Below are positions 32,887 to 61,665 of a stretch of DNA of 64,000 nt, one piece after another. This stretch comes from Arcobacter sp. (GTDB lineage: Bacteria; Campylobacterota; Campylobacteria; Campylobacterales; Arcobacteraceae). The stretch is from the NCBI RefSeq assembly GCF_050294675.1, contig NZ_JBNKON010000032.1; one strand, given 5' to 3'. The notes beneath the pieces are model-generated. The model was given only the letters and a program-made list of their open reading frames with translations, was not told where the DNA came from and did no database searches. Each line of letters starts with the position of its first letter. Position 1 is the stretch's first letter. Position numbers and translations under genes: made by a program.

Positions 32887-34867
32887 ACATATCTTTGTAT
32901 AAAGAGTCTTTAGTATCTTTTATTTCTTTACATTTTAATATAAATTCATCTTTCAAATTATTTAAACCTTCATCATCATAAAATCTTATCAATTCGTAAT
33001 ATACTCGTGCTTTATCATTTGGTTTCATATTTCTAGTATTTTTTATTGAATCTGTTAAAAAAGTAATTCCAGCTGGTATATTATTTTTCTTTTTCTCTAA
33101 CATTGCAAGTTCAATATCAACAAAAGGAGAATAAACAAAAGCTTTTAACTCTTTTTGTTTATTATAAAGTTTTTCCAATACTTTTTCAGCTTCTACTTGT
33201 CTATCTTTTCCTATTAAATACAAATAATATTGATAATAAAAATCTACAATGATAGGATTATTCTCATTTTTTTCAATAAATTCTGGGAATCTTGTTGCAA
33301 AGTAAAAGAATTTTTCCATAGCAATAGAGTCATTTTTTGCAGTATAAACTAAAAATCTATATAAAAACTCTTTTTCTAAAACATCTTTATTATTTACCAT
33401 TTCTACTTTAGAAGAGTAATCCATCGCTTCATCAACTAAACCTAAAGCATATGCCATTCTTTCAAGGTATAAATATAGTGTAGCATCCCTACTTGAATTA
33501 AAAGTCTCTTTTAATAATTCATAAGCTCTTTCATATGGAACTTCAATCAAACACTCAAAAAACTTATATTTTACTTCCTTATCTTCAATTAAAAGCTCTA
33601 AAGTCTCTTTTCTAGAAGTTTTAAGAGCTTTATTCATTAGAAAACATTGATCTTTTTTTAAATAATCTTTTATCAAAGAAACATTAATTTCATCATATAA
33701 AACACCTATGTTTTCATAAGCAAATCTTTGTGTAATTGAGTTTGAGATTTTACTATAAACTTTTTTTGATTTTAAAAGAAATTCATATTTCTTTTCTTTT
33801 TTAAAATTTAATAACTCTTGTAATAAAGCTTTTTGTTTCATAGCTTCTGAGTTAGGATATTTTGAAGCAACTAACTCAGGAGTAATATTTCCCTCACGCA
33901 TTAAAATCTCATCAATAAACATTTTTGACTCTTGAACATATAAACCATCTGGAAATTCACTTAGAATATCTTTATATAACTCTTTTGCCTTAAATAAATA
34001 AAAATTTGTTCCATCATACATGCTCATATAAACATTTGCTAATTTAAATTTAAACTCTTCAATAAACTCACCTTGAGTTGCCCTATTTAAAAGTTCTTTT
34101 AAAATCTCAACTGCAAATTCAGGCATATTTGCAGCAACTAATTTATCAACTTTTTTTAATGCAATAAAAGAATCTTCTGAATAATAATCAATATTTTTAT
34201 CTAAAACCTTCGAAATAAGTTCATAGGCTTTTTCTTTTTGCCCATCTAAAACATAAACATCAAAAAGTTCATCAGCTACAATTGTTGCAACTAAAACGTC
34301 AGTAGTATCAACTAAAATATTGTATAAAGTTTTTATTGCATTTGAATAAGATTTTGTATACTTATAAACCTTTGCCAAATAAATTTTTCCATAGGCATTT
34401 GTAATTTTGTCAGAAAAATTGTTTATGATGATTTCAGCAAAATATTTTGCCTCTTTTACTCTGTTTGTATCTAACTTAAAATCTACCATAAGCATATATG
34501 CTTTTGCTAAATCTTCTTCTTGAATTTGACCTGTGTTAATAGCTAGTTCTAATTCGTTTGAAGCTTCAGAAACTATTCTTTTTGTCTCTTTTTTAAGAGC
34601 TATTTCTGAATATGTAAGAATAATATCTGAGTTTAGGATTTTTATTTTATTTTGTTCTTTAAAGTTTTTAATTTCTGCATATGCTTCATCTATTTTACCA
34701 TCTCTTGCCATTTTTTTTATTTGCTGTAAAAGTTCAAATCCATCTTTTATATCATTTTTCATTTTTTCAGATATTTGAACGCCTGATGGGTTTATAAAAC
34801 TATAATAAAAATCTACTTTTGCGTTTGAAAATGTAAATAGTAAAAATAATATCAATAAAAACTTCAA
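32873..34867 (-). CDS. secreted TPR-like helical-repeat protein embedded between flhB and fliI
   Basis: 664 aa. Signal peptide MKFLLILFLLFTFSNA. It is all-helical with repeated A/Y/L-patterned about-34-aa units (e.g. IYLAKVYKYTKSYSNAIKTLYNIL). There is a 3-nt gap to flhB and a 14-nt overlap with fliI. Confidence 0.5.
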   Translation of the reverse strand: MKFLLILFLLFTFSNAKVDFYYSFINPSGVQISEKMKNDIKDGFELLQQIKKMARDGKIDEAYAEIKNFKEQNKIKILNSDIILTYSEIALKKETKRIVSEASNELELAINTGQIQEEDLAKAYMLMVDFKLDTNRVKEAKYFAEIIINNFSDKITNAYGKIYLAKVYKYTKSYSNAIKTLYNILVDTTDVLVATIVADELFDVYVLDGQKEKAYELISKVLDKNIDYYSEDSFIALKKVDKLVAANMPEFAVEILKELLNRATQGEFIEEFKFKLANVYMSMYDGTNFYLFKAKELYKDILSEFPDGLYVQESKMFIDEILMREGNITPELVASKYPNSEAMKQKALLQELLNFKKEKKYEFLLKSKKVYSKISNSITQRFAYENIGVLYDEINVSLIKDYLKKDQCFLMNKALKTSRKETLELLIEDKEVKYKFFECLIEVPYERAYELLKETFNSSRDATLYLYLERMAYALGLVDEAMDYSSKVEMVNNKDVLEKEFLYRFLVYTAKNDSIAMEKFFYFATRFPEFIEKNENNPIIVDFYYQYYLYLIGKDRQVEAEKVLEKLYNKQKELKAFVYSPFVDIELAMLEKKKNNIPAGITFLTDSIKNTRNMKPNDKARVYYELIRFYDDEGLNNLKDEFILKCKEIKDTKDSLYKDMCDKM

Positions 34868-39666: not shown

Positions 39667-40494
39667 CTATTTATTTAAATTTTGTAGCAGTGAACTAACA
39701 ATAAACTCCAATTCCTTTGTAACAGTTTGATTTTCAAACTCATTTACAAACAATTTTCTTAGTCTTCCCGTTGTAGAAATATTTTTAGAACTGCTTACAT
39801 TACCTAGATATTTTATCATAAAATCACAATTTAATCTATTTTTAAGTGCAAGATTTTGTAATGAATTAGTTATAGTTTCGCCAATTTTATAGTTTTTTGT
39901 ATGATTGAAGCATAACATAAGCGAATTTTTATCTTTGGAGAGCATTTTCATCAAAGCATAGACATCTGTCAAGGCACTAGGATCTGTTGTAGTTAGTGCC
40001 AAAATATTTGAAGAAATTGTCAAAAATTCTTTTACATATTCATTAAGTCCTGCACCTGTGTCAACTAAAACTATATCAAATTTTTCAATATCTATAATAT
40101 CTTGTACAATTCTAGCCAATACTAAACTATTAGAATGTTTTGAATATTGATAACCACTTTTTCCAGCTATTAAAGTTATATTTGGATACTGCGTTTTTAT
40201 AAATACATCTTCTAAATCTGATTTACCATCAATATAATCAAACATAGTAAGAGTGGGTTTTACATCAAATAAAACCTGCATATTTGCTAATCCAATATCA
40301 GCATCAATTACTCCTACTTTTAATCCAGCTTTTGCAAACAAATATGCAATATTTGCTGTAAAAGTTGACTTACCAACGCCACCTTTCCCTGATGTAATTG
40401 TTAAAAGCTTTGTCTTTGATGGGCTAACTCTATGTTTTCTTTTTGTTAAATTAACTAATTTATTAGCTTGTGTTGAAATAGTATTAATCATCAT
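39667..40494 (-). CDS. flhG: flagellar number regulator FlhG (MinD/ParA-type ATPase)
   Basis: 275 aa. Deviant Walker A SGKGGVGKST. N-terminal (D/T)QA..L-like activator peptide (STQANKLVNL). Directly downstream of flhF. Confidence 0.85.
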   Translation of the reverse strand: MMINTISTQANKLVNLTKRKHRVSPSKTKLLTITSGKGGVGKSTFTANIAYLFAKAGLKVGVIDADIGLANMQVLFDVKPTLTMFDYIDGKSDLEDVFIKTQYPNITLIAGKSGYQYSKHSNSLVLARIVQDIIDIEKFDIVLVDTGAGLNEYVKEFLTISSNILALTTTDPSALTDVYALMKMLSKDKNSLMLCFNHTKNYKIGETITNSLQNLALKNRLNCDFMIKYLGNVSSSKNISTTGRLRKLFVNEFENQTVTKELEFIVSSLLQNLNK

Positions 40495-40498
40495 TTAC

Positions 40499-41659
40499 CT
40501 ATTTAGGGCAAGAGTGTTGCATAAAACATTTAATCAAAAATGATGAATCAGAAACAACTAAATCATCAGGAACATTTTGTCCTATAGAAATATATGTTAT
40601 TGATTTTTTTGTTTTATGGGCAAATGAGATTAAATTACCAAAACTTTTTGTTTCATCTAATTTAGTAAAAGTTAAATAATCAATATTTAGTCTTGAATAA
40701 TTTGTATAAATATCCATTAAATCACTTTGTTTAACATTTGCTGGGAGTACTAAGATTTTCTCAATTGGAAGTTCGTCAACCTTTTTTTGAAACTCATTTA
40801 TTATCTCTATTTTATCAACATCATATTGACTTGAACCAGCTGTATCAATAAAAATATAATTACAATCTTTTAGTCTTAATAATGATTCAACCAAATCTTC
40901 AGGTTTTTTTACCACCTCTAAAGGCAGTCTCATAATATTTGTATATGCTTGTAACTGCTCAATGGCACCTACTCTAAAAGAATCTAATGTAACAACACCA
41001 ACTTTATAGTTTTCTCCTAATTTATAAGCATATCTAGCTGCTAATTTTGCAATTGTTGTAGTTTTCCCAACTCCTGTAGGCCCAACCATCATCATAATTT
41101 TTCTTTGGTGTTTACGAAGTGGTACCTCATTTTTAATAGGAATTATTCTTCTTAATATTAATTTAAAAAAGTCATTTATTTTTTGGGGATTAGACTTCAT
41201 TCCAACAGGTAACTGTTTAATTGTTTTTTTCATGATTGTATATGTCATCTCTTGATCAAACTCATTTGACTCAAAAAGATTATATATATCAACAAATTCC
41301 GGAGGAATAGTTAAATCATAAAGTTGTGATTTAGGATCCCAGATTGATTTTTGGACTTGCTCAATGGCATCTTGCATTTTAAGAATTTCTTCTTTAAAAT
41401 CATAAACTTTTGCAGAAAAATCACTATCTTTTAATTTACTATTTGTTGTTACTATTTTTTTTGTGAAATTTGATGTTTTTTTAGGTCTTTGAATATCTTG
41501 TTCTTCTTCTATTGCAACAACAACTTCATACATACTATTTTTACTTTTAGGATCAGAAATTTTTTTAGTTGATATTACAATTGCATCTTCTCCACACTCC
41601 TCTTGAGCTTTTCTTAGTGCTTTGGTAGGTGTTTCCCCCAAAAAAGACAACATATTCAT
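40499..41659 (-). CDS. flhF: flagellar biosynthesis SRP-type GTPase FlhF
   Basis: 386 aa. G boxes GPTGVGKTTT, DTAG, TKLDE. Confidence 0.9.
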   Translation of the reverse strand: MNMLSFLGETPTKALRKAQEECGEDAIVISTKKISDPKSKNSMYEVVVAIEEEQDIQRPKKTSNFTKKIVTTNSKLKDSDFSAKVYDFKEEILKMQDAIEQVQKSIWDPKSQLYDLTIPPEFVDIYNLFESNEFDQEMTYTIMKKTIKQLPVGMKSNPQKINDFFKLILRRIIPIKNEVPLRKHQRKIMMMVGPTGVGKTTTIAKLAARYAYKLGENYKVGVVTLDSFRVGAIEQLQAYTNIMRLPLEVVKKPEDLVESLLRLKDCNYIFIDTAGSSQYDVDKIEIINEFQKKVDELPIEKILVLPANVKQSDLMDIYTNYSRLNIDYLTFTKLDETKSFGNLISFAHKTKKSITYISIGQNVPDDLVVSDSSFLIKCFMQHSCPK

Positions 41660-44265: not shown

Positions 44266-45168
44266 CTATCCTAATCCTATTTGACTTAATCTTGATGAAT
44301 CATTACCAATATTTTTAATTTTTAAACCAAATTTTCCCTCAACAATAACAGCTTCACCTTCACCAATTTTAATACCATTAACTAAAATATCTAAAGGCTC
44401 ATTTACCATTTGTTCTAACTCTATAATTTCACCAATATCCCATTTTAAAATATCTTTTAATAAAAATAATTTTGTTCCAAGCCTAACACTTAGTTTTAAT
44501 TTTATATCAAAAAGAAGTTTTAAATTTTTAGATGACTCTTCAGATAATAATGAGTCAATACCACTAGTAGATGGTATCGAAGAAAAATTTTGACCTACAT
44601 CATTTTGCAAATTTGTATCACTTATATTAGAATTATTTTCAACAGCTTCATTCCCAGTTATTCCAGATAAAAAAGGAAGCATAATATCATCAAAACCAAT
44701 AATCACTTCCGAAATAGAATTATCTAAATTTAGTTTAAAAGAGTAGGTATTTTCATTATTTTCTCTTTCACTACACTCAACTATCTTTGAACCAAGAATA
44801 ACATGCTTTAGACCAGAAATATCAGGAAAACCTTGTGCATTTGTAGAAGTAGATATACTTCCACAAATGTTAGATACAATTTCATTAACTGCATCTGTTA
44901 TTTCATCATCAATATGCTCTTTTAAGTCACCTGTTCCACCAAGCATTAAATACTCAAACTTTGCAGCACTTGATGTTGGAATAAAAAAATTCCAATTTGA
45001 TACAATATCTTTGAATTCAAATTTTACATCAATCTCTACACATTGAGAAGAATCAACCTTCGAAAAATCAGCTACTTCAACACTCTCACATTTAGTTGGT
45101 TGAGAAAGTAATTGTTCTAAAGTGTTTGATAATTCATCTTTTAATATATTTGATAAATCAGATGCCAA
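44266..45168 (-). CDS. fliY: flagellar motor switch protein FliY (CheC-like middle domain + FliN/SpoA C-terminal domain)
   Basis: 300 aa. The C-terminal 80 aa, LSVRLGTKLFLLKDILKWDIGEIIELEQ...LDILVNGIKIGEGEAVIV, form a SpoA fold. The N-terminus lacks an EIDALL-type peptide. Confidence 0.65.
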   Translation of the reverse strand: MASDLSNILKDELSNTLEQLLSQPTKCESVEVADFSKVDSSQCVEIDVKFEFKDIVSNWNFFIPTSSAAKFEYLMLGGTGDLKEHIDDEITDAVNEIVSNICGSISTSTNAQGFPDISGLKHVILGSKIVECSERENNENTYSFKLNLDNSISEVIIGFDDIMLPFLSGITGNEAVENNSNISDTNLQNDVGQNFSSIPSTSGIDSLLSEESSKNLKLLFDIKLKLSVRLGTKLFLLKDILKWDIGEIIELEQMVNEPLDILVNGIKIGEGEAVIVEGKFGLKIKNIGNDSSRLSQIGLG

Positions 45169-45579: not shown

Positions 45580-47589
45580 TTAGAGTGCTTCTAGTAATTT
45601 TTCAAATCCCTCTAATTTAAAATCTATCATATCATCTAAATAAGGTTTTAATAAAAACTGCTTTGCACTACTTATTTTTAACTCTTGGATTAATTGAACT
45701 CCCGTTAAAAAATCTGCTCCACTATCATTTAATAACCCTTTTATTAGTGAAATCTGAACTGAGGCTTCATTATAATTTCCATCATCTAAATAACAAGCAA
45801 CTGTTAAATACATTGTATATTTATCTTCAAGTTTATATTCACTTTGTAGAGTTTCAAGTAGTTTAAGAGCTTTTTTAGGATAACCATCATGTAAAAGCTT
45901 TAAAGCCTTTGTTCTTAAATAAGTAGGTGTAATATTACTCTCCATACTAAAATCAGCTTTATTAAATAAACCTAAAGCTTTTAATAAATCAACATAATAT
46001 TGTGTAATTAATATTGAACCATCTAAAAAGTTATTATTTATTTTTAAAGGAACTGTATCTTGAAGTCTTGAAAAATATGAAAAATCATTTTCATTTTCCC
46101 TTTTTATTACTTTTTTTATTAAGAATGTTAAGGGTTCTTTAAAATTATCTTTTATAAGTGGCTCATCTATTGTTGCTTCGCCAGCTTCAAACTTTGGCAA
46201 AAAGTTTAATGCCTTATAAAAAATAGTTTTTGAATAGTGTTTAGGTTCAGTAGAGACTCCAATATTTTCATTAATAATCAAATTATATATTTTTTGCCCA
46301 AAATATTGGTACATACCTTTTTTAAGTTTTACATTAGTATCTAAGTAATCTTTATCTTTAAGAGTAGTATTTGATCTAATTGCAGTAATTAATGTCATAA
46401 CAGAATATAGCTTATTTCCAGGATTTAATTTTGTTGCTTGTTCAAAATATTTTAGAGCATTATAAAAATCATCTATTTGAGCATAAGATAAACCTAAATT
46501 ATAGTATATATAAGATTTTGTATCTTTATTTAGCATTTTTTTAAGTTCAGTAACTTTTTTAATTGGATCTTTTTTAATCAATTCTAAAAACTTAGCATTG
46601 TATGTAATCATATCATCTAAATTTTCTAAACTTTGTTCATCTTTAAAAATAAAACCTTTAGTAGAGTCATAAATTATCTCTTCATTATCAGAAAAAATAT
46701 AAGGGGCGTAATAATATATATAATCAATTTTTCTATTTAAATCAAATTTTGTTACAAAATTAAAATACTCTTTAGGTGAATATTTATCTTTATTAAAAAA
46801 CATTTTTAATTCTAACTCTTTATTTGCTTCAAATGCAGATCTTCTATTTTGTATAATAGTTAAATTTTCATCTAATTTTTTAAGATTATTTGATTTTAAA
46901 TTACTAAAAATCATAAACCATAAAATTTTATCTTTCATTTTTAAATTGACACTATCTTCATAAGCTTTTGAAAGTAATAAATCAGCTTTTTCATAATTTC
47001 TTAGTTTTATAAAAAGAAGTGCTTTTTTTAAATCAGAAGCATAATCCATTGATTCTAAAAGTTTTAATGACATTTCATAATCTTTTAATATGATATAAGT
47101 ATCAGCAACCAATCTTTTCCCATGCTCTGACAAATCTTTTCTAGTTTTAGCTATTTCAATAATTTTCTTTAAAAATTTTTTATTATCAGAAATTAAGTAT
47201 AAATAATAACATGCTGACATATAAGAGTATGTATTTTTTGTCATTGCTTCTTCATGATTATATATTCTTTCTAAATATATTTTTGCATTATGAACTGAGT
47301 TTAATTTGTAATATGCGATTCCTATATTCAAATAAGATGGTATTTGTAAGAATTTTGATGTCTTTTTTAAAATATCTATTGCTTTTAGGTATTCACCCTT
47401 TTCTAAAAGTAAAACCGCTTCATTAAATTGAATTTGTTGAGATAAATTTTTTTGATTTTTTGTTAACTCATTATATTTGAAAATTATTTCTGGTTGAGAT
47501 TCAACTTTAGAAACATCTTCTGCAAATAGAAAAGTTTTTGAAAAAAGAATTAATAAAAAAAAGAAAAACTTTTTTTTTAATATAAACAA
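45580..47589 (-). CDS. secreted TPR repeat protein embedded in the flagellar run
   Basis: 669 aa. Signal peptide, then clear TPR units (e.g. YYNLGLSYAQIDDFYNALKYFEQATKLNPGN; LNIGIAYYKLNSVHNAKIYLERIY). Confidence 0.6.
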   Translation of the reverse strand: MFILKKKFFFFLLILFSKTFLFAEDVSKVESQPEIIFKYNELTKNQKNLSQQIQFNEAVLLLEKGEYLKAIDILKKTSKFLQIPSYLNIGIAYYKLNSVHNAKIYLERIYNHEEAMTKNTYSYMSACYYLYLISDNKKFLKKIIEIAKTRKDLSEHGKRLVADTYIILKDYEMSLKLLESMDYASDLKKALLFIKLRNYEKADLLLSKAYEDSVNLKMKDKILWFMIFSNLKSNNLKKLDENLTIIQNRRSAFEANKELELKMFFNKDKYSPKEYFNFVTKFDLNRKIDYIYYYAPYIFSDNEEIIYDSTKGFIFKDEQSLENLDDMITYNAKFLELIKKDPIKKVTELKKMLNKDTKSYIYYNLGLSYAQIDDFYNALKYFEQATKLNPGNKLYSVMTLITAIRSNTTLKDKDYLDTNVKLKKGMYQYFGQKIYNLIINENIGVSTEPKHYSKTIFYKALNFLPKFEAGEATIDEPLIKDNFKEPLTFLIKKVIKRENENDFSYFSRLQDTVPLKINNNFLDGSILITQYYVDLLKALGLFNKADFSMESNITPTYLRTKALKLLHDGYPKKALKLLETLQSEYKLEDKYTMYLTVACYLDDGNYNEASVQISLIKGLLNDSGADFLTGVQLIQELKISSAKQFLLKPYLDDMIDFKLEGFEKLLEAL

Positions 47590-47986: not shown

Positions 47987-50341
47987 TTATCGTTTTAAAC
48001 CAATTAGTGTTGTTAATAATTGATCAGACGTAGTAATTGACTTAGCATTTGCCTCAAAAGCTCTTTGAAATACCATTAAATTAACTAAACTTTCACTTAA
48101 ATCAGCTGTACTTAATTCTAAAGTTTTAGACTCAATTGTAGCAGTTCTATCATTATTAATATTGTAAGTTGGCTCACCACTTTGAGTAGTTTTTGCTAAA
48201 AGGTTATTACCTTTTGGCTCCAATCCTCTTTCATTATTAAATAATGCTATTGCAACTTGTCCTATTGCAAACTCTGCACCATCTTGCTTCATAGTAATTA
48301 AGCCTGCTGCATTTACAGAAAACTCCCCAAAGGCGGAGTCGGATATACCCAAGGTGTCAAGCCTTAGTTGTAAAGAATCTTGTGAAGAGGTTTGGTCAAG
48401 TGTTGTTTTTATCTCTAAAAACTCTGCACCTGCACCTTTCCTACCTGATGCAGTTGCATTTTTATCAATACCTCCAGCTACTTTACTAATAGATAAAGTA
48501 GTAGGATATGTAACTCCTGCACCTGAAGTTTGCTGAATAATTAATTCACCATTTACTACAAGTGCAGTATATGGCATAGAAACAGTTACACCACTTGCAT
48601 TAGTTGCTGTATTTTTAGAAAATATATCATTTATTTTTCCCGCAAGTGTATCTAAATCTCTAGGAGAAGAAATTGTACCACCTGTTGTTGTAATAGCACT
48701 TAATACTGTACCATCAGATAAAGTAATTGAAGGAACTGTTATAGTAAAATTAGTTTGTCCATTTGCTAAAAGTGCAGCTGTACCATCAAAAGTATATGAA
48801 CCTGCACTTCCCGTTGCTGTATATGTTTGTGCATTTGCAAATAACTCTGAACTAAATTCCACATCATACTCTTTTGCTTCAATAACAAGGTTTCCATTGA
48901 TATTTTTTGCAGTAAAATATTTATTAAAATTATCAACAGAAATATTTGTACTTCCTGTCGCATTAGTAGTAAGATTAGTTATTATCGTATCTATATCAGT
49001 AGTTGGGTTAATTGTAATTGCCGAACCAAAGTTAATTGTTCTCTGTAAATCTTTATCATAAACACTAAAATCAAAAGTGTATGAATCTGCACCATTTAAA
49101 TTTAATTCTTCAATTGTAAATACATCCCTTTGATTACCAGTAATTGCCATTGCTAAAGCATCCCTAGCACTTTCTAATCCACCAAGACCAATACCAACTT
49201 GAGCAATAGTTGCACTTGTTGTTTCATTTACAGAACCATAAACAACTGTTGTACCAGAAACTTCTGCAACTTCAGTTATTTTAAATTCCTGACCTGGAAT
49301 CATTGACTGAATTTGAATCATACCCAATAATACATCTGCATCTTTTGTAGATTTAGTAAAAGTATCAAAAGATTCAAATGAGTTTATTGCACTTCCTGTT
49401 TCAGTATTTCCTGTTATATCTTTATCTGTTACAGTATATGCAACCATACCTGTAATAGAAGAAATTTGATCAGCTAAAGCTTTGTATGTTGCAATTTGAC
49501 TTGCTTGTACATCAGTTAAAGTTGTAACTCCATCATCTGCTAATCTTGATGGTTGAGAAATATAGTTTTGAGAATATTTTTTACCATCAATATAAACATA
49601 TATTTGGTCACCCTCTTTAGTTAAATCTGTACCAATAAAATTTATCTGTGAAATTTGAGCTTGTGCACTTTGTGAAGTTCCATCAGGATTATCTTGATAT
49701 GCAGATAAGGCATCAGAATAATTTGCAACTAAAGCTTTTACATCATTAATTTTTGAAGCTTGATTTTTTAGTCCATAACCTGAATAAACATCTTTCACAT
49801 CACTTTTTGATGTTTGTTCATAATTTGTTGCTTTTGCAGTATAAGTTTCAACCGATTGAGAAAGACTTACAATTTTAGATGTTAAAAGTTCTGTATATGC
49901 ACTTGTAAAAACATTTATATTTGGATTTGTTGATAATATATCATCAGAAGTAAGAGTATTCATAGCCCAGCCCTGAACTTCATTTCCAGCGGCATCTTGT
50001 AAAGTACCATTATCTCCCATTCTGAAGTTTCCAGCTCTTGTATAAAATGTTTCACTAGTTCCTGTTGAACTTTTACTTGAAACTGCAAAAAAACCATGCC
50101 CTGATAATGCCATATCATAATCAACACCAGTAGTTTTTAAATTACCTTGAACATAAAGTTTTTCTGCATCTAATACTTTTGCACCTTTTCCTATTTTGTC
50201 TTGATACATTTGGTCAGCAAAAGAGATTCTTGATGACTTATAACCTATTGTATTAACATTTGCAATATTATGAGACTCATTGTCTAAAGCTTTTTGTTGT
50301 GCTGCTAGACCAGAAATCCCTGTCCATAGTGCTCCAATCAT
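47987..50341 (-). CDS. flgE: flagellar hook protein FlgE (large, Campylobacterota-type with big central insertion)
   Basis: 784 aa. N-terminus GISGLAAQQKALDNESHNIANVNTIGYK, DMALSGHGFF...FYTRAGNF. C-terminus MVFQRAFEANAKSITTSDQLLTTLIGLKR. Confidence 0.9.
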   Translation of the reverse strand: MIGALWTGISGLAAQQKALDNESHNIANVNTIGYKSSRISFADQMYQDKIGKGAKVLDAEKLYVQGNLKTTGVDYDMALSGHGFFAVSSKSSTGTSETFYTRAGNFRMGDNGTLQDAAGNEVQGWAMNTLTSDDILSTNPNINVFTSAYTELLTSKIVSLSQSVETYTAKATNYEQTSKSDVKDVYSGYGLKNQASKINDVKALVANYSDALSAYQDNPDGTSQSAQAQISQINFIGTDLTKEGDQIYVYIDGKKYSQNYISQPSRLADDGVTTLTDVQASQIATYKALADQISSITGMVAYTVTDKDITGNTETGSAINSFESFDTFTKSTKDADVLLGMIQIQSMIPGQEFKITEVAEVSGTTVVYGSVNETTSATIAQVGIGLGGLESARDALAMAITGNQRDVFTIEELNLNGADSYTFDFSVYDKDLQRTINFGSAITINPTTDIDTIITNLTTNATGSTNISVDNFNKYFTAKNINGNLVIEAKEYDVEFSSELFANAQTYTATGSAGSYTFDGTAALLANGQTNFTITVPSITLSDGTVLSAITTTGGTISSPRDLDTLAGKINDIFSKNTATNASGVTVSMPYTALVVNGELIIQQTSGAGVTYPTTLSISKVAGGIDKNATASGRKGAGAEFLEIKTTLDQTSSQDSLQLRLDTLGISDSAFGEFSVNAAGLITMKQDGAEFAIGQVAIALFNNERGLEPKGNNLLAKTTQSGEPTYNINNDRTATIESKTLELSTADLSESLVNLMVFQRAFEANAKSITTSDQLLTTLIGLKR

Positions 50342-50422: not shown

Positions 50423-51886
50423 TTATGATGTCTTAAGTGCTATTGCTGTTTTTAAAAATTCATCTGAAGTAGTAATTGATTTAGAATTTGCTTCAAAAGC
50501 CCTTTGTGCAATTAAAAGTTTTTGTAAACCTGTAGATACACTTATATTACTTACTTCAACACTATTAGATACGACTTCATTTAAAGTATCAGCATTTTTA
50601 GCTTCTCCTGAAGCTTTAGTTGCAGAATATAAATTATTACCCTCTGCTTTTAGTGACTGTTCATCTGGGAAATATGCAGTTGAAACTCTACCTGCTATAT
50701 AAGTATTAGTCCCTTGTGTTAATAATAAAATTCCATCATCACTAACGCTAAGTGAAGTATCATTATATGAAGCAAGTCCAATATTTGTCAATTTTAAATT
50801 AATACTTTCCAATGATAAACTTGCTTGATTTGGAGCAGGAATTCCATTTTGTATATCTAAAAATTCTGCATTTGCTAATTGAACTGCACTGTTTAGTGCA
50901 TCCCTTGCCGATTCAACCATTGCTAAACCTGAACCTTCTACTGCATCAATTACTTCAATAATTGGAGCACTTGAATTTATAACAGGTGAAGATATTTTTG
51001 TATTATTTCCTGGTATTAAATTATCAATTGTTAAAGTGCCAGTTGCTGAATCAAAAGATGATGTAAATCCTTGTAAATCAGAAATTTTATCTGCAAATTT
51101 ATTCATAGTTGTTAATGCATCTGTATCAAAATATTGTCTTACTAAGTTAGTTCCTAAATATAACTCAACAAAATCATTTGAATTTGTTAATTCATTATTA
51201 TAATTCGAATATGTTAAATTAGTTTGTTGAAAAGTTGAAGCGACAGAAACTTCATTTGGATTTGACTCTAAAAGTTTTAATTTTTCATTATAATTAGTTT
51301 TTAATGCTTCCACATCTGATATAACAGAAGTAGCAGATTTATAATTTTGTCCTGAAATACCAACATCAGTAGCTGTTTTTGTATAATCCGTAGCTTTTGC
51401 ATTAATTGATACAGTTCTATCTTCTTGTGTAATTATTGATGAAGCTAAATGCTTCGTATAAGTATCACCAAAAGCTACTGTATCATTAGAAGAAGTTGTT
51501 GAAATAATTTGAGTTTGCAAGCCCATTACGGTAAAACCTTCATTATTTATAAGTGTTCCATCACTTGATTCTTGAAAATTACCAGCTCTTGTATAGTATG
51601 ATTCATTAGTTTCAGGATCTGTTACAATAAAAAAACCTTTTCCTTGAATAGCGAAATCATAGGCATTACTTGTATCTTTTATACCACCTTGATGAAAACT
51701 TTTCTGAATAATTTCATTTGCTACACCTTTTCCGTAACTACCATTTTTATACATCATATCTTCAAAAGAAATTTGATCTTCTTTGTGACCTATATTATTA
51801 ACATTGGCAATATTATTTGATGCAACATTTACAGCACTAGATGATGCAAATATTCCAGATAATCCATTGTATAAGCCACTAATCAC
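50423..51886 (-). CDS. FlgE-family hook protein paralogue (short form)
   Basis: 487 aa. N-terminus LSGIFASSSAVNVASNNIANVNNIGHK, DFAIQGKGFFIV...YYTRAGNF. C-terminus LLIAQRAFEANSKSITTSDEFLKTAIALKTS. Directly downstream of flgD. Confidence 0.75.
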   Translation of the reverse strand: MISGLYNGLSGIFASSSAVNVASNNIANVNNIGHKEDQISFEDMMYKNGSYGKGVANEIIQKSFHQGGIKDTSNAYDFAIQGKGFFIVTDPETNESYYTRAGNFQESSDGTLINNEGFTVMGLQTQIISTTSSNDTVAFGDTYTKHLASSIITQEDRTVSINAKATDYTKTATDVGISGQNYKSATSVISDVEALKTNYNEKLKLLESNPNEVSVASTFQQTNLTYSNYNNELTNSNDFVELYLGTNLVRQYFDTDALTTMNKFADKISDLQGFTSSFDSATGTLTIDNLIPGNNTKISSPVINSSAPIIEVIDAVEGSGLAMVESARDALNSAVQLANAEFLDIQNGIPAPNQASLSLESINLKLTNIGLASYNDTSLSVSDDGILLLTQGTNTYIAGRVSTAYFPDEQSLKAEGNNLYSATKASGEAKNADTLNEVVSNSVEVSNISVSTGLQKLLIAQRAFEANSKSITTSDEFLKTAIALKTS

Positions 51887-51895
51887 TTTTTTTCC

Positions 51896-52378
51896 TTAAT
51901 AAATTTTAGTTATATTGTTATACTTAATTTGAGACATATCTTTAGAAAGTAAAAGTTTTCCATTTTCTTTGTCATATCCAATTACTTCATAACCTGTAGC
52001 AACAACCTCACCATCAAGTGACTCAACTGAACTAATTTGAAAACTTTTTAAATTCCCATCTTGTCCATATGAACCATTTTCAACAATTCTTCCTATTACA
52101 TCTGTTGCACTAGCTAATGCCATTTGAGCAAAAGAGTTTTGTAAAGATTTCATTGCTTCAATTGTTGATAAGTTTGTTTGAATACTTGACATCTGCATTT
52201 GAGAGTCTAACATACTTGCAGAATCCATCGGTTTAGTTGGATCTTGAAGTTTTAACTCTTCAAGCATTAACTTAAGAAAATCTTCATTAGTCAGTCCATC
52301 ATTACTTATAGTTTTAGTGTATGTTTGACCATTTGCTGTTGTTGTAGTATTTACACTTACATTATCTACTGACGCCAT
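51896..52378 (-). CDS. flgD: flagellar hook assembly/capping protein FlgD
   Basis: 160 aa. FLKLMLEELKLQDPTKPMD signature. Confidence 0.85.
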   Translation of the reverse strand: MASVDNVSVNTTTTANGQTYTKTISNDGLTNEDFLKLMLEELKLQDPTKPMDSASMLDSQMQMSSIQTNLSTIEAMKSLQNSFAQMALASATDVIGRIVENGSYGQDGNLKSFQISSVESLDGEVVATGYEVIGYDKENGKLLLSKDMSQIKYNNITKIY

Positions 52379-52387
52379 AATTTTCTC

Positions 52388-52675
52388 CTATAACATATTT
52401 TCTTCAAAGAAATATCGTACAACATTATCTGAATCCATTGAATCTTGTACTCTTACTGCCAATTTTTCATCAATAACAATGATATCACCAGTACCAATAA
52501 TTCTTGAGTTAACATAAATATCACCTCCAGCACCTGCTGGTTTATCAAGTGATAATATGTCTCCTTCACCCAAATCCAAAAACTCTTTTATAGTTATATT
52601 TGCACTTCCAAGCATTACATCTACAGTTATTTGTGTATCAACTAATAAATCATATACTCTGTCATTAATTTCCAT
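52388..52675 (-). CDS. fliN: flagellar motor switch protein FliN
   Basis: 95 aa SpoA domain: ITVDVMLGSANITIKEFLDLGEGDILSLDKP...IYVNSRIIGTGDIIVI. Confidence 0.75.
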   Translation of the reverse strand: MEINDRVYDLLVDTQITVDVMLGSANITIKEFLDLGEGDILSLDKPAGAGGDIYVNSRIIGTGDIIVIDEKLAVRVQDSMDSDNVVRYFFEENML

Positions 52676-52812: not shown

Positions 52813-53484
52813 TTACATAATTGAATCTAATGATTCAAGCATTGAATTAACTTTTGCCTCAATATTTCCATCAAAATTACCTAAATCACTAGCAATTACA
52901 ACACCACCAGCTGTAACATTTGCATCTTGAACTAAAGAAATATGTGTACCTTCCAAATTTAAATCATTTTTTAGAAGTTCAAAATCCCTAGGATTTAAAT
53001 GTATTTTTACTTTTGAAGCTGTTTTTATTTTGTCAAGAATATTATGAATTGTCTCTTTAGCAATTCTTGCTGAATTTTCACCAATTTCTACTGATATGAT
53101 TTTTTTTGCTATTGATATGGAAGTTTTAAGGATTTTTGTTTCCATTTGGAAAGTTGCTTGTTCAAAAAAAGCAGCATAATGCTTTAAATCTTTTATTGCT
53201 TGAACCACTTGATGGTCAATATCTTTTCCACCAGCTAATCCTATATGTTCTAAACCATCTACCTTTTGTTGAACTGCAGCAATAGTTCCAGCAAGTGCTT
53301 TAATTTCCGCTAAAATTTGATCACCATTTATACTAACTTGTTTTTGATCTAATTTTGCAACTTGTTGCATTTGCTCTGTTTGAGTAATCTCGCCAGTATT
53401 AAGAAATGTACCTAATTGAAAATTTTCAACCCCATCATTTGCTTTTATTACTTTAGCATTTGAATATACGTTATTTTTTTCCAT
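52813..53484 (-). CDS. fliH: flagellar export ATPase regulator FliH
   Basis: 223 aa. Central helical region plus a C-terminal FliH-type domain (AGGVVIASDLGNFDGNIEAKVNSMLESL). Follows fliG with a 1-nt overlap. Confidence 0.65.
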   Translation of the reverse strand: MEKNNVYSNAKVIKANDGVENFQLGTFLNTGEITQTEQMQQVAKLDQKQVSINGDQILAEIKALAGTIAAVQQKVDGLEHIGLAGGKDIDHQVVQAIKDLKHYAAFFEQATFQMETKILKTSISIAKKIISVEIGENSARIAKETIHNILDKIKTASKVKIHLNPRDFELLKNDLNLEGTHISLVQDANVTAGGVVIASDLGNFDGNIEAKVNSMLESLDSIM

Positions 53485-54491
53485 TATTCAACATCCCTTT
53501 CAATTACACCCTCTTCAATAAGTTTTTGGGCTGCATCAAGCATTTTTCTTTGAGCTGTTTCAATATCTCTAATTTTAACTTTTGTAAGCATTTCAAACTC
53601 TTCTTGAAATCTATCACTTGCTCTTTGTGACATAGCACCTCTTACTATATCTAAATCATCTTCTGTTGCATTTTTCATGGCAACTGCAACATCAGCCATC
53701 TCAACATTTTGAAGAATTTTCATTACATCATCTTTATCTAAAGCAAGTAAATCTTCAAATACGAACATATTTTCTTTTATTTTTGTAGCTAGTGCTGTAT
53801 CAACTCCATTAATATTTTTAAGAATATCTTGTGATTTTGGTCCCATTCTATTCAACATATCAGCAACAACTTTTACACCACCAACATCAACAATAGATGA
53901 TAATAATGACTCCAATTTTTTTTCTAAAACTAAAGAAATTGTTCTAACAACATCTGGAGAAACATCTTTTATTGTGGCCATTTGCATTGTAACTTTTACT
54001 TTTACATCTTCGTCTAGTTGATTTAAAACATCAGCTGCACCACCAGATTCCATATGAGCTAAAATAACTGCAATTGTTTGAGGAGACTCTTCTTTAATAA
54101 AATCTGCAAGTTGTTTAGGATTGATTGCATCAAGATAATTAAAAGATTGAGATGCCAATTGCATTTTAGATAGTTTTGCTAAAATCTCATCTGCATCATT
54201 TTTACCCAATGATTTATATAATAAGTCTTTTGCATAATCATATCCACCAGCACTAATAAAACCTTTTGTTCTTGTATATAAATGAAACTCTTCAAGAATA
54301 GCTAATGAAGTATCTTTATCAATTGAACCTAATTGTGTAATTGAAGTTGATATATTTTCAACAATATGACGAGGTAAATGTTGAAAAATCTTAACAGTAG
54401 CTTCTTCTCCAATCAAGACAAAAAAGATAGCTACCTTTTGTAGCATTGGCATCCCTTTTGTTAGTTCATGATCATACGGATTTTCTATCAC
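53484..54491 (-). CDS. fliG: flagellar motor switch protein FliG
   Basis: 335 aa. KVAIFFVLIGEE, and a C-terminal charged torque helix region (RASDRFQEEFE). ARM-repeat layout. Confidence 0.95.
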   Translation of the reverse strand: MIENPYDHELTKGMPMLQKVAIFFVLIGEEATVKIFQHLPRHIVENISTSITQLGSIDKDTSLAILEEFHLYTRTKGFISAGGYDYAKDLLYKSLGKNDADEILAKLSKMQLASQSFNYLDAINPKQLADFIKEESPQTIAVILAHMESGGAADVLNQLDEDVKVKVTMQMATIKDVSPDVVRTISLVLEKKLESLLSSIVDVGGVKVVADMLNRMGPKSQDILKNINGVDTALATKIKENMFVFEDLLALDKDDVMKILQNVEMADVAVAMKNATEDDLDIVRGAMSQRASDRFQEEFEMLTKVKIRDIETAQRKMLDAAQKLIEEGVIERDVE

Positions 54492-57405: not shown

Positions 57406-58587
57406 TTATTTACCAAATTCTGCAATTAACGATTCTAAATCATCACTATTTACTAAATCATCAGTATTATCTCCTGGTAAATGGGTAGCACCAGGAAGAG
57501 AAATTGATTTACTCTCATCATCAAAAATAGCATTTAATTGTCTTGATAAATTTATTACCAATCCCATAACTCTTTCAATTTTTTGTCTATTTATATCATG
57601 AAACTGCATAAGTTCCATTGTATCAAAAAGTTCTTTATCTCTATTATGAAGTCTTGCTTGTATCTCTTTTGGTTTATCAATTAAGCCTTTAATTAAATCC
57701 AAATTATTTGAAAACTCTTTAACATTTGGAAATTTTTTATTTAGCATCTCTAACATTTTAAGTTGAGATTGCATAAATTCATCTAATTGTTTGGTAGTTT
57801 TTCTTAATTCTTCATTATCTTCTAAAATATAACTTAGGGCATCAAATATTTTTGTAGCTTTTTCTTCTGAATCATTTGCCACTTCACCTAATTGATTAGG
57901 AATATTAATTTGATCTACATTAACTACATTATTACCTTTTTTACTTTTAGTAGAAATTGGCTCTTCACTATCTTTAACTTTATCCATCTCATCAATAGAT
58001 TCAGCATCTAAATTAAAATCAAAATCATTTAAATAATCATCTACTTCTAAGTCTTTATTATTCTCTAATCCTGCTATTAAATCATCAATTTCACTTGTAT
58101 CAACATCACTATTTGAATCATCATTTGAAACCGTATCATCATTTTCTGACATAATTCCATTTAAAATTGAATCTATTTCATCATTAGAAACAGAAGATTC
58201 TTCTTCATTATTAGTAGTATCTTCATCAACAGAATTTAATAATTCATCAACATCTACATCTGAAACTTCTTCTTTAGTCTCTTCTTCTTTTTCAGGTTCA
58301 TTTGATAAATTAGAATCTTCTTCTTTATAAGAATTTATTAATTCATCAACATCAATATTATCTTCTTCATTTTTTTCTTCTTTATCTGACGAAGTTTCAT
58401 CTTTTTGTTCATCTTCTACTTTAGCATTAGATAAATCAGTTTGTGCTATTAAATCAGCTATATCATTTTCTGACATATTTTCAGAATCTTTTTCATCAGA
58501 AGCTACATCATCATTTTCAGAATTTTCATTTTCAGAGATATCCAGCCCATTCATCAGTGCTTCAATCTCTTCTTGACTCATACTCAT
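57406..58587 (-). CDS. cheZ: CheZ-like CheY-P phosphatase with long acidic N-terminal extension carrying repeated EIDxLL-type motifs
   Basis: 393 aa. FHDINRQKIERV parallels E. coli CheZ FQDLTGQVIKRM (catalytic D-x3-Q). The C-terminal DDLESLIAEFGK parallels the CheZ C-terminal CheY-binding peptide. It lies next to cheY. The first about 175 aa are D/E/N/S-rich. Confidence 0.65.
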   Translation of the reverse strand: MSMSQEEIEALMNGLDISENENSENDDVASDEKDSENMSENDIADLIAQTDLSNAKVEDEQKDETSSDKEEKNEEDNIDVDELINSYKEEDSNLSNEPEKEEETKEEVSDVDVDELLNSVDEDTTNNEEESSVSNDEIDSILNGIMSENDDTVSNDDSNSDVDTSEIDDLIAGLENNKDLEVDDYLNDFDFNLDAESIDEMDKVKDSEEPISTKSKKGNNVVNVDQINIPNQLGEVANDSEEKATKIFDALSYILEDNEELRKTTKQLDEFMQSQLKMLEMLNKKFPNVKEFSNNLDLIKGLIDKPKEIQARLHNRDKELFDTMELMQFHDINRQKIERVMGLVINLSRQLNAIFDDESKSISLPGATHLPGDNTDDLVNSDDLESLIAEFGK

Positions 58588-58607: not shown

Positions 58608-58979
58608 CTATTTTTTTAATACACCATCTAATTTTTCTTTTAATATCTCAGCATTAAAAGGTTTAACTATGTAATTATTAACTCCAGCTTTTAAAGCAGT
58701 AATAACTTCACCTTTACCACCTTCTGTTGTAATCATGATTATCGGTGTACTTTGATGATTACCTTCTTTTCTTACTTTTTTAACTAAATCAAGTCCATTC
58801 ATATTTGGCATATTCCAATCAGTTAAGATAACATCATATTGTGATTTAGATAACATAGTCCAAGCTTTAACTCCATCTTCTGCTTCATCGAAATCTTCTT
58901 TATCAATTCCTAGTTGCATTACGACATTACCAATAATTCTTCTCATAGTAGAACTATCATCGACTATAAGTATTTTCAT
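58608..58979 (-). CDS. cheY: chemotaxis response regulator CheY
   Basis: 123 aa. VDDSSTMRR, TDWNMPNMNG, TTEG, and NNYIVKPF are canonical CheY residues. Confidence 0.9.
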   Translation of the reverse strand: MKILIVDDSSTMRRIIGNVVMQLGIDKEDFDEAEDGVKAWTMLSKSQYDVILTDWNMPNMNGLDLVKKVRKEGNHQSTPIIMITTEGGKGEVITALKAGVNNYIVKPFNAEILKEKLDGVLKK

Positions 58980-59938: not shown

Positions 59939-60373
59939 ATGGATTTAGAAGAACTAAAGAGACTTAGAGAACGAAATTTTTTAGATCATAAGAAGAAAAA
60001 AAGAGAATATTATCTAAAAAAGAAGTTAGAAAAAGAGTCTAATGAATCGTTAAAAAAGTCAAAACAACAAATATATGATTATGAAAATGATCTTAATATT
60101 GATAATTTTGACTTAAAAATAAAAGAAATCATAAAAAAGCAAAAATCTCATGTTGATAGTAGAAAAGAAAAAATTGTACAAAAAATAAAAGACTACAGAG
60201 AACAAAAAAAGAGTTACTATATAGAAAACAGAGAAAAAAGGCTGGAATATGATAAAGAATATAGAGAAAAGAAAAAAGAAGAATTAAGAGAATACAGAAA
60301 AAGATATTACGAAGAGAATAAAGAAAAAATTTTATCAAGACAAAAAGAATACAGAAAATCATCTAAAGAGTAA
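59939..60373 (+). CDS. highly basic K/R/E/Y-rich repeat protein, function unknown
   Basis: 144 aa with reiterated (K/R)EYR and YY.(E)N(K/R)EK motifs (REYYLKKK; KSYYIENREKRLEYDKEYREKKK; REYRKRYYEENKEKILSRQKEYRK). It starts 13 nt after flgG. Confidence 0.5.
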   Translation: MDLEELKRLRERNFLDHKKKKREYYLKKKLEKESNESLKKSKQQIYDYENDLNIDNFDLKIKEIIKKQKSHVDSRKEKIVQKIKDYREQKKSYYIENREKRLEYDKEYREKKKEELREYRKRYYEENKEKILSRQKEYRKSSKE

Positions 60374-60375
60374 AA

Positions 60376-61665
60376 ATGGCAGAAAATCAAGAAAAAACAG
60401 AAGCAGAACTTTTAGAAGAAGCTATGCAAAACTTAGGTTTAGAAGAAGTTGTTGAAGAAGTAAAGAGTGATGAAGTTTTGGTTGAAGGTGGATCTTCTAA
60501 GTTAACAGATGAGGATATTAAATCATTAATAGAAGATGATGAAGATAATTCAAAAGAAGAAGAAACAAATATTTCAAAAGAAGAACCAAATGTCACAGAT
60601 GAAATATCTGCAGTTGAGGATATCAATTTAAATAATATTCCTGATAAAGATTTAGCTAATGAAACAGATGGTTTAGAATTAGATGAAGATTATCCTGTAC
60701 AAAAGAAACAAAATAAAATATTAAGAATCTTAATTATTTTTGTATCTATCCTATTAACACTTGTATCAGTAGGAGCCGTTCTTTATTTTATTGGATTTTT
60801 TGATCCAGAACCAGTAAAAGAAGTAAAAAAAGAAGAGATTAAACCTCAAAAAGAAGAGTATAAATTTAATACAAAAGATATTGATACAAATAGATTAAAC
60901 AAAAAGTTAAATTTATTGACCAAATATGAAATTGTAGAAAATCCTAATATTGAAGAAGAAAAAAGAAAAGAAAAAGAAAAATTATATCTTGAAGCAAAAA
61001 AACAATTAGAGATGGAAAGATTAGCTCAAATTGAAAAAATAAAAGAAGCAGAAAGAAAAAGAATGGCAGAAGAACTTCCGGCAATTCAAAAACAAGATAT
61101 TAATGAAAACATAGATAAAGAGATTGAAAAGGTAATAGATAAAGAAGAAGTACCTACTCAAATAAAAGAAGAAGCTACTGTTTCAACAAATGAACAAGAA
61201 CCACAACAAGTAGAAGATAAAACAACAAATGAAGATGCAAACACAGTAACTCAAACTAATATTGAAAATACTCCTTCAAATACAACACCTGAAAATGAAA
61301 AAAAAGTAGAAGAAACAACTTCTGTAGTAGTTGAAAATACAGAAACAAAGGTTGAACCTACACCAGTAAAAGAAGAAGTAGCTGTTGCTGAAGAAAAACC
61401 TAAAGAGAGTCAATTTGTTAAAATTATAAAAATTGCAACAAAAAGTAAAGATATATATAAATCTTACCTTGACAAAATTTATTCTGTTAGTGATGATGTG
61501 ACTTTATGTAGAGATTACCAAAATAATGTAGAGATATTTATTGGTCCATTTGAAGATGATTCAAGTAGAAGTAAAATTTCTCAAGAATATTTATCAAAAT
61601 ACAATATAAAAGTAGAAGAGTATGATTATACTAAAGATGAATATACTAAAAGATGTAATTACTAG
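60376..61665 (+). CDS. bitopic membrane protein: acidic N-terminus, one TM, E/K/T-rich linker, C-terminal SPOR-like domain
   Basis: 429 aa. TM segment ILRILIIFVSILLTLVSVGAVLYFIGFF (about aa 113-140). The C-terminus, FVKIIKIATKSKD...VEIFIGPFEDDSSRSKI, resembles a SPOR repeat (tentative). It starts 2 nt after the previous stop. Confidence 0.5.
   Translation: MAENQEKTEAELLEEAMQNLGLEEVVEEVKSDEVLVEGGSSKLTDEDIKSLIEDDEDNSKEEETNISKEEPNVTDEISAVEDINLNNIPDKDLANETDGLELDEDYPVQKKQNKILRILIIFVSILLTLVSVGAVLYFIGFFDPEPVKEVKKEEIKPQKEEYKFNTKDIDTNRLNKKLNLLTKYEIVENPNIEEEKRKEKEKLYLEAKKQLEMERLAQIEKIKEAERKRMAEELPAIQKQDINENIDKEIEKVIDKEEVPTQIKEEATVSTNEQEPQQVEDKTTNEDANTVTQTNIENTPSNTTPENEKKVEETTSVVVENTETKVEPTPVKEEVAVAEEKPKESQFVKIIKIATKSKDIYKSYLDKIYSVSDDVTLCRDYQNNVEIFIGPFEDDSSRSKISQEYLSKYNIKVEEYDYTKDEYTKRCNY

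Follow-up and report, generated by a model that had tools for sequence, protein, structure and literature searches.

Six EIDxLL-type motifs in the acidic N-terminal half of an epsilon-type CheZ encoded in an Arcobacter flagellar locus

CheZ is the textbook case of a phosphatase with a single tethering peptide per chain for finding its substrate, and a cheZ gene inside a flagellar locus of Arcobacter sp. raises the question of what such an enzyme might do with a whole row of tether-like motifs. The gene lies in a stretch of 64,000 nucleotides from contig NZ_JBNKON010000032.1 (RefSeq assembly GCF_050294675.1), called the window below. A first-pass annotation, made from the letters alone, had described its product as a CheZ-like phosphatase with six FliM-N-type EIDxLL motifs in an acidic N-terminal half. 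The open reading frame (ORF) exists, and all the peptides and residue ranges quoted for it agree with its translation.

The motif array, its conservation and its spread in the family

Residues 1-200 of the protein contain 37.5% Asp plus Glu, 12.5% Ser and 12% Asn, and a consensus recurs along them, [M/V]-S-x-acidic-acidic-(I/V)-acidic-x-(L/I)-(L/I/M)-(A/N)-(G/S/Q). The strict pattern [DE][IV][DEA]xL[ILM] matches five times in this region, with cores starting at residues 7, 42, 79, 112 and 166; the sixth copy, EIDSIL at residue 137, has I in place of L and follows the relaxed pattern [DE][IV][DEA]x[LI][ILM]. The six cores are spaced 25-37 residues apart. Analysis of 20,000 composition-preserving shuffles of residues 1-200 gave a mean of 0.036 strict matches and a maximum of 2 (P<5e-5), and all the other window ORFs of at least 90 residues, about 22,000 residues in total, contain just two strict matches. 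The six-copy array proposed in the first-pass annotation is thus real and not due to the acidic composition.

The N-terminal ~200 residues are predicted to form an acidic disordered region with six short amphipathic helices. In the AlphaFold2 model, the ten-residue blocks that hold the motif helices have a mean predicted local distance difference test score (pLDDT) of ~52-83, while the linkers between them, including the linker of residues 15-36 after motif 1, score below 50. As modelled, these helices amid low-pLDDT linkers are what one expects of short binding motifs within a disordered segment.

To measure conservation, the window protein was aligned with 29 orthologues and the identity to its residues was averaged over each region. 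This mean identity reached 0.97 for motif 1, 0.82 for motif 2, 0.64 for motif 4, 0.63 for motif 5 and 0.79 for motif 6, against 0.39 for the linkers between motifs; the C-terminal peptide and the helical hairpin of the catalytic part scored 0.91 and 0.82. The expected conservation in orthologues was therefore found for five of the six cores and not for motif 3 (0.31), whose region is heavily gapped in an alignment of diverse homologues. Motif 2 appears as MSEDDIxxLIAQT in most long forms. At the DNA level, direct repeats among the copies are weak (70-84% identity over 25-40 nucleotides), and Tandem Repeats Finder detected no tandem array in cheZ apart from one trivial 6-nucleotide, 22-base-pair repeat. 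Because similarity between the copies is this weak in the DNA, a recent tandem expansion, slippage or an assembly artefact was rejected. Since the DNA repeats are weak and yet the motif persists, the copies appear to be old and kept at the protein level; judged from these comparisons, the array is under selection.

A search of 1.84 billion representative proteins with the C-terminal domain as query returned just 136 clusters, so the family is small. Nearly all of its full-length members begin with M(S/T)QEE(I/L)(E/D)ALM, and this N-terminal motif is also found in forms of 210-280 residues with YQDIHRQ active sites, several of which are assigned by cluster look-up to Helicobacter sp., H. mustelae and Sulfurospirillum. 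M3, Q5, E6, E7, I8, E9, L11 and M12 are invariant in the 120 closest homologues though overall identity falls to 33-40%, and the C-terminal D(L/I)(E/D)xLIxxF peptide is as conserved as the N-terminal one. The number of internal copies is variable: of 177 full-length members, 60 lack them, and 36, 31, 23, 16, eight and three carry one, two, three, four, five and six, respectively. Copy number correlates with protein length (Spearman 0.73), the median length of CheZ proteins without internal copies being 247 residues. With internal copies ranging from 0 to 6, the window protein stands near the top of the family. Its relatives among GTDB species representatives belong to the Arcobacteraceae (Arcobacter, Malaciobacter, Halarcobacter, Aliarcobacter, Poseidonibacter and Ca. 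Marinarcus), to a Sulfurospirillum metagenome-assembled genome (MAG) and to several assemblies labelled only Campylobacterota, Campylobacterales or Campylobacteraceae; the nearest share 64-69% identity with it and carry 4-6 internal copies.

These data bear on a neutral origin of the array, in which the internal copies would be duplication remnants of the N-terminal segment in a tolerant, low-complexity acidic spacer and only the terminal peptides would matter. Four of the five internal cores stand clearly above the linkers (0.63-0.82), the copies are old and the motif has still been kept, and chance would be expected to supply 0.04 copies. These points make such an origin improbable in our judgement, even if a copy number of 0-6 in simple correlation with length, the poor positional conservation of motif 3 and the many Arcobacteraceae lacking an internal copy are all consistent with it.

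CheZ identity and the class of the motifs

The C-terminal part of the protein (residues ~222-393) is a CheZ of the epsilonproteobacterial type, and this assignment is sound. The NCBIfam model NF041271 (Phos_CheZ) matched residues 222-392 over model positions 69-240 of 242 with E=2.8e-29 and 102 bits, a score below the equivalog cut-off of 350 bits. PF28017 (CheZ_Pase) is recorded among precomputed matches for a 99%-identical copy of the protein (P0001, in MAG assembly GCA_050296495.1) and for all 120 best database homologues. The first-pass annotation had instead looked to the canonical CheZ profile, PF04344, which gave no match to the window protein at E<=1 in a local Pfam scan, so that membership comes from NF041271 and PF28017; a precomputed PF04344 match exists in a few homologues (P0062, P0065, P0075 and P0113). 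The sole product of the local scan was a Guanylin match, rejected as spurious.

Comparison of a profile of the 120 homologues with Escherichia coli CheZ (1KMI_Z) gave a marginal E-value of 0.4, with the active-site helix exactly in register: FHDINRQKIERV (residues 329-340) lies opposite E. coli FQDLTGQVIKRM, which includes FQDLTGQ. Most of MELMQFHDINRQKIERVM is likewise invariant across the 120 homologues. In the AlphaFold2 model, computed with the homologue alignment, the helical hairpin has ten-residue block mean pLDDT values of 86-96 over residues 241-350, and it presumably represents half of a four-helix-bundle dimer. The chain ends with DDLESLIAEFGK (residues 382-393), and in the peptide DDLESLIAEF L387 and I388 are invariant, with D383, L384, E390 and F391 at least 90% conserved in the same homologues. 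The two hallmarks that the first-pass annotation had named, D-x3-Q and the acidic C-terminal peptide, were thereby borne out: D331 and Q335 are invariant and aligned with 1KMI_Z, the peptide is conserved, and the gene lies beside cheY. The assignment is also already in the literature, where the same gene arrangement has been described (PMC9321776); activity of the family as a phosphatase of phosphorylated CheY (CheY-P) has been shown experimentally only for HP0170 of Helicobacter pylori and Cj0700 of Campylobacter jejuni (PMC3143842; bioRxiv 10.1101/2023.01.06.523011). Between the array and the hairpin, residues 183-200 (57988-58041, minus strand; DDYLNDFDFNLDAESIDE) are conserved in close orthologues, are not of the EIDxLL type and may be a further interaction element.

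To which class do the motifs belong? A 14-column profile of the family N-terminus was compared with 177,635 distinct PDB sequences, and FliM N-peptides ranked first and second: the Thermotoga maritima FliM N-peptide crystallised with CheY (4IGA_B, SQEEINQLI, E=0.074) and residues 7-18 of Salmonella FliM (8UMD_C, SQAEIDALLNGD, E=0.33). The E-values are marginal, as the profile is so short, but the ranking is specific. A family profile was needed for it, since a single-sequence phmmer search of the PDB with the 25-residue N-terminus found no match. The first-pass annotation had thus been right about the FliM-like character of the first copy, and mistaken in treating it as a peculiarity of this protein, the peptide being near-universal in epsilon-type CheZ. 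For a 22-column profile of the internal copies, the best natural matches in the PDB were paxillin LD motifs (DDLDALLADLEST; 4EDN_K and 2VZD_C, E ~0.02), and de novo designed proteins were also retrieved. The description of all the motifs as FliM-N-type consequently stands for motif 1 and not, in any specific sense, for the internal copies, whose profile missed FliM.

The N-terminal, internal and C-terminal logos share one core: acidic (0), hydrophobic (1), acidic (2), x, L (4), hydrophobic (5), small (6), x, hydrophobic (8). In the internal copies position -4 is hydrophobic as well and position -3 is Ser, which recalls the 'LS' of FliM LSQxEIDALL. Position-specific scoring matrices (PSSMs), one for the N-terminal and one for the C-terminal peptide, were derived from short-form homologues only and scanned over residues 1-225, with the composition of the acidic region as background. 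Scored with the C-peptide PSSM, all six motif positions and no others passed the median of the shuffle maxima, and two of them lay beyond the 95th percentile. Three of the six passed it with the N-peptide PSSM, each of them beyond the 95th percentile; the internal copies in this group are motifs 5 and 6. No non-motif position of residues 1-225 rose above the shuffle median with either matrix. Motif 3 had the top score of the six with the C-peptide PSSM, and motif 6 was significant with both. By these scores the internal copies resemble the family's C-terminal peptide at least as much as its N-terminal one, and the shared logo core together with the scans assigns motifs 1-6 and the C-terminal peptide to one motif class. 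Its two terminal members are the counterparts, as far as sequence can tell, of FliM_N and CheZ_C, the classical docking peptides for CheY-P. In the E. coli structures 1F4V and 1KMI, these two docking peptides occupy a single face of CheY, alpha4-beta5-alpha5.

Amphipathic helices of this kind could also act inside CheZ, folding back on the four-helix bundle or oligomerising, with an autoinhibitory or cooperative effect and no external partner. The presence in E. coli CheZ of an N-terminal helix without known function (PMC7750401), the block-mean pLDDT at motifs 1 and 2 (74 and 83), rather high for free helices, and the likeness of the motif class to a generic helix-bundle binder such as paxillin LD all fit this explanation. 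We nevertheless give it little credence: six copies with disordered linkers of ~20-30 residues exceed the need of a single packing helix, copy number varies freely between relatives, and the N-terminal copy matches FliM_N beyond its hydrophobic face (S-Q-E-E-I-[DE]-A-L-x-N-G).

Proposed function of the array

On the likeness to the two classical docking peptides, we consider it reasonably probable that the array provides docking sites that tether phosphorylated receiver domains to CheZ, whereby CheY-P would be captured. Each motif would bind a phosphorylated receiver domain on its alpha4-beta5-alpha5 face. The foremost candidate is CheYz, the motor-type CheY encoded next to cheZ and the putative substrate of the phosphatase; other CheY paralogues and the receiver domains of CheA or CheV could be alternative partners. 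The solved structure nearest to the window CheY is H. pylori CheY1 (3GWG, E=2.9e-45), with which it is nearly identical in the alpha4-beta5-alpha5 segment, and the FliM-binding residues W58, K91, K119 and Y106 are kept in Arcobacter CheYz (PMC9321776). A CheZ dimer would surround its two active sites with as many as 14 tethers, and CheY-P caught by the array would be kept locally concentrated for hand-over to the catalytic bundle. Docking would at the same time withhold CheY-P from FliM at the motor, since FliM_N and the CheZ peptide share one binding surface on CheY. In evolutionary terms, the invariant N-terminal copy would be a second docking site ancestral to all epsilon-type CheZ, whereas the internal copies would have been added specifically in the Arcobacteraceae lineage and would tune capacity. 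HP0170 and Cj0700 bind or dephosphorylate several receiver domains, namely CheY, CheA-RR and CheV (PMC3143842; bioRxiv 10.1101/2023.01.06.523011). N-terminal deletions of H. pylori CheZ keep phosphatase function (PMC11237671), in agreement with a docking function that is accessory and not catalytic.

Several observations weigh against tethering by the array. The E-values of the FliM matches are marginal, the motif being short. FliM was not retrieved by the internal-copy profile in the PDB search and paxillin LD motifs were, so that the internal copies fall into a generic class of acidic amphipathic helices. A Foldseek search of the PDB with the AlphaFold2 model yielded generic coiled-coil and hairpin matches (E>0.4), with no CheZ in the top 50 and no significant match to 1KMI; as the query is a helical hairpin with a disordered half, this search is uninformative. 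Even among Arcobacteraceae the number of copies ranges between 0 and 6, and many members have no internal copy, so the internal copies are dispensable for core function. Removal of the N-terminus in H. pylori left the assayed phosphatase-dependent phenotypes unchanged (PMC11237671), and any docking contribution may therefore be subtle. Finally, the EIDAL motif of FliM also binds FlhG, for which it was reported to be necessary and sufficient in Shewanella (bioRxiv 10.1101/2022.04.21.489128), so that likeness to FliM_N does not single out CheY.

This last point opens another explanation, in which the motifs are localisation or assembly handles that bind FlhG (39667-40494), ChePep or the SpoA domains of FliN/FliY, and serve the polar placement of CheZ or the titration of FlhG. 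FlhG binding by the EIDAL motif of FliM or FliY in other polar flagellates, as reported for FliM in Shewanella, the FlhF/FlhG pair encoded in the same flagellar cluster and the position of cheZ inside a flagellar structural locus make such a role possible. Lertsethtakarn and colleagues are said to have found in 2015 that H. pylori CheZ is polar and depends for this on the acidic protein ChePep, which would favour it. The same 2015 study reportedly placed the polar-localisation determinant in the central domain and not in the N-terminus, which would count against it. Background on ChePep is given in PMC3143842. Considering that the motifs resemble CheZ's own C-terminal CheY tether as much as FliM_N, and that the gene's partner is cheY and not flhG in 55 of 57 parsed loci, we regard a localisation role as unlikely.

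Returning to the docking of CheY-P, a bolder version may be put forward tentatively. A family-wide and hitherto unrecognised N-terminal peptide that mimics FliM would have been multiplied in Arcobacteraceae into a high-capacity, stoichiometric decoy and sponge for CheY-P, and signals would be terminated by sequestration and hand-over and not through catalysis alone. The up to 14 sites per dimer would then compete directly with the FliM sites of the motor, and the array might be a hub that integrates the five CheY paralogues of a horizontally acquired F7 system with the ancestral CheYz. If this were true, the FliM-like peptide would explain the N-terminus of 'unknown function' of H. pylori CheZ.

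The cheYz-cheZ pair, its flagellar locus and known systems

The features of the pair are collected in Table 1. A ribosome-binding site, AAGG, precedes the first ATG of cheZ by ~8 nucleotides, and the stop codon of cheY lies 20 nucleotides before this ATG; the two genes are presumably co-transcribed. Among 57 parsable related loci, cheY is directly upstream of cheZ in 55, and the remaining two end at a contig edge. The same arrangement of a cheYz-cheZ pair in Arcobacter flagellar loci was described by Mo et al. (2022), who regard the pair as the remnant of an ancestral F3 system in bacteria with five CheY paralogues and a hybrid chemotaxis system (PMC9321776).

Table 1. Coordinates of cheZ, its sequence elements and the adjacent cheY in the window
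Feature	Residues	Position	Strand	Remarks
cheZ	1-393	57406..58587	-	393-residue epsilon-type CheZ phosphatase, CheZ_Pase family; ORF with NCBIfam/Pfam matches
cheY (CheYz)	1-123	58608..58979	-	123 residues; NCBIfam NF007901, E=2.8e-37
Motif 1, SQEEIEALMNG	4-14	58546..58578	-	Predicted helix 5-12; mean pLDDT of residues 1-10, 74
Motif 2, MSENDIADLIAQ	38-49	58441..58476	-	ENDIADLIAQ at 40-49; predicted helix 40-55; mean pLDDT of residues 41-50, 83
Motif 3, DNIDVDELINS	76-86	58330..58362	-	Strict match; predicted helix 80-92
Motif 4, SDVDVDELLNS	109-119	58231..58263	-	Strict match; predicted helix 111-122
Motif 5, VSNDEIDSILNG	133-144	58156..58191	-	NDEIDSILNG at 135-144; I for L at the fifth core position; predicted helix 135-147
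Motif 6, DTSEIDDLIAG	163-173	58069..58101	-	Strict match; predicted helix 165-176
Helical hairpin	229-356	57520..57903	-	AlphaFold2 helices 229-285, 290-302 and 305-356
Catalytic D-x3-Q (DINRQ)	331-335	57583..57597	-	D331 and Q335; invariant in 120 homologues; aligned with 1KMI_Z
Flexible linker	357-380	57448..57519	-	pLDDT <50 at 363-367; no predicted secondary structure
C-terminal amphipathic peptide, SDDLESLIAEFGK	381-393	57409..57447	-	Canonical CheZ tether for CheY-P; predicted helix 381-392

The flagellar locus of the window encodes FlhA, FlgL, FliI, FlhB, FliR, a FliK-like protein, FlgC, an FlhG-like protein, FlhF, MotB and MotA, and further FliY, two FlgE-like proteins, FlgD, FliN, FliH, FliG, FliF and rod proteins. 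The FlhF GTPase and the adjoining MinD-like ATPase, presumed to be FlhG (39667-40494), occupy 39667-41659 on the minus strand. No FliM was found in the 64-kb window, either by tblastn with an approximate E. coli FliM query or by Pfam/NCBIfam scans of the flagellar-cluster ORFs, and its gene must therefore be elsewhere in the genome; the window does hold the switch genes for FliY (44266-45168), FliN (52388-52675) and FliG (53484-54491). As noted in the first-pass annotation, this FliY has an N-terminus without an EIDAL peptide of the CheY-binding type.

Other genes of the region also deserve mention. A 429-residue acidic, E/K-rich ORF with one predicted transmembrane segment and no family match (60376-61665, plus strand) carries the EIDAL-like stretches TEAELLEEAM and DEDIKSLIED in its N-terminal part, and may be another motif bearer beside the flagellar genes. 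Just downstream of flgG lies a 144-residue, extremely K/E/R-rich ORF without Pfam match (59939-60373, plus strand). Two adjacent FlgE/hook-type proteins, of 784 residues (47987-50341, minus strand) and 487 residues (50423-51886, minus strand), are followed by FlgD (51896-52378). Two large proteins inside the cluster, one of 669 residues with TPR repeats (45580-47589, minus strand) and one of 664 residues with sub-threshold TPR/ARM-like matches (32873-34867, minus strand), received no assignment in family searches and may be motor-scaffold components, perhaps PflA/PflB-like.

Among known systems, the window protein is closest to the CheZ of H. pylori (HP0170) and C. jejuni (Cj0700), with which it shares the family (NF041271, PF28017) and a DxxxQ within Q(F/Y)(H/Q)DI(N/H)RQKIERV; it also has the C-terminal D(L/I)(E/D)xLI..F and N-terminal M(S/T)QEE(I/L)(E/D)ALM peptides of epsilon-type CheZ. 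It differs from the short epsilon forms of Helicobacter sp., H. mustelae and Sulfurospirillum (~230-280 residues) in ~150 extra acidic residues and five added copies of the motif. To our knowledge, E. coli CheZ has one tether per chain, a structured N-terminal helix and no acidic disordered motif array. With E. coli CheZ (1KMI) the window protein shares a helical hairpin, a flexible linker and a C-terminal CheY-binding helix, as predicted here, and the AxxFQ-DxxxQ neighbourhood (PMC7750401) is partly kept as LMQFHDINRQ, whereas overall sequence similarity is marginal and PF04344 does not recognise it. Unlike F3-class species, in which cheZ lies beside trhP, the window has cheZ with cheY in a flagellar structural locus (PMC9321776).

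The first copy, SQEEIEALMNG, resembles the LSQxEIDALL peptide of FliM/FliY, matching Salmonella SQAEIDALLNG and T. maritima SQEEINQLI, and like that peptide it stands at the extreme N-terminus with a disordered linker after it. The internal copies keep the hydrophobic (-4), Ser (-3), acidic, I, D, x, L, L pattern of the FliM EIDAL. In contrast to FliM/FliY, the motif is here borne by a phosphatase and not a switch protein, is present in six copies and lacks Gln in the internal ones. A further parallel is paxillin, in which several acidic amphipathic helices of the LDxLLxxL type are spaced along a disordered N-terminal half. This is an analogy only, and would be a convergent one: paxillin is a eukaryotic scaffold and not an enzyme, its partners are helical bundles such as FAT and parvin, and the parallel implies no common descent.

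That the protein is a CheZ and that cheYz and cheZ are paired was known before. Neither the six-site array nor the N-terminal FliM-like peptide was found described in the Arcobacter evolution paper (PMC9321776), the 2024 H. pylori paper (PMC11237671) or full-text literature searches, and the words N-terminal, motif and FliM are absent from the Cj0700 preprint (bioRxiv 10.1101/2023.01.06.523011). The first-pass annotation's remark that it knew of no such architecture for CheZ therefore agrees with the Arcobacter, Cj0700 and H. pylori papers and with these searches.

We consider the finding to be of moderate to good interest, as it allows a direct and cheap test and offers a plausible function for an N-terminal region studied since 2010. 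That region is still described as being of unknown function in H. pylori CheZ (PMC11237671), and the family-wide FliM-like peptide provides a concrete hypothesis for it in the CheZ proteins of H. pylori and C. jejuni. With seven candidate tethers in each chain, a natural CheZ of this kind would lend itself to asking how docking valency sets gain, speed and buffering in two-component signalling. If the motifs bind FlhG instead, signal termination would be linked to the control of flagellar number, which would also be new. In Arcobacter itself, the array may show an ancestral CheY/CheZ pair adapting to a newly acquired kinase pathway.

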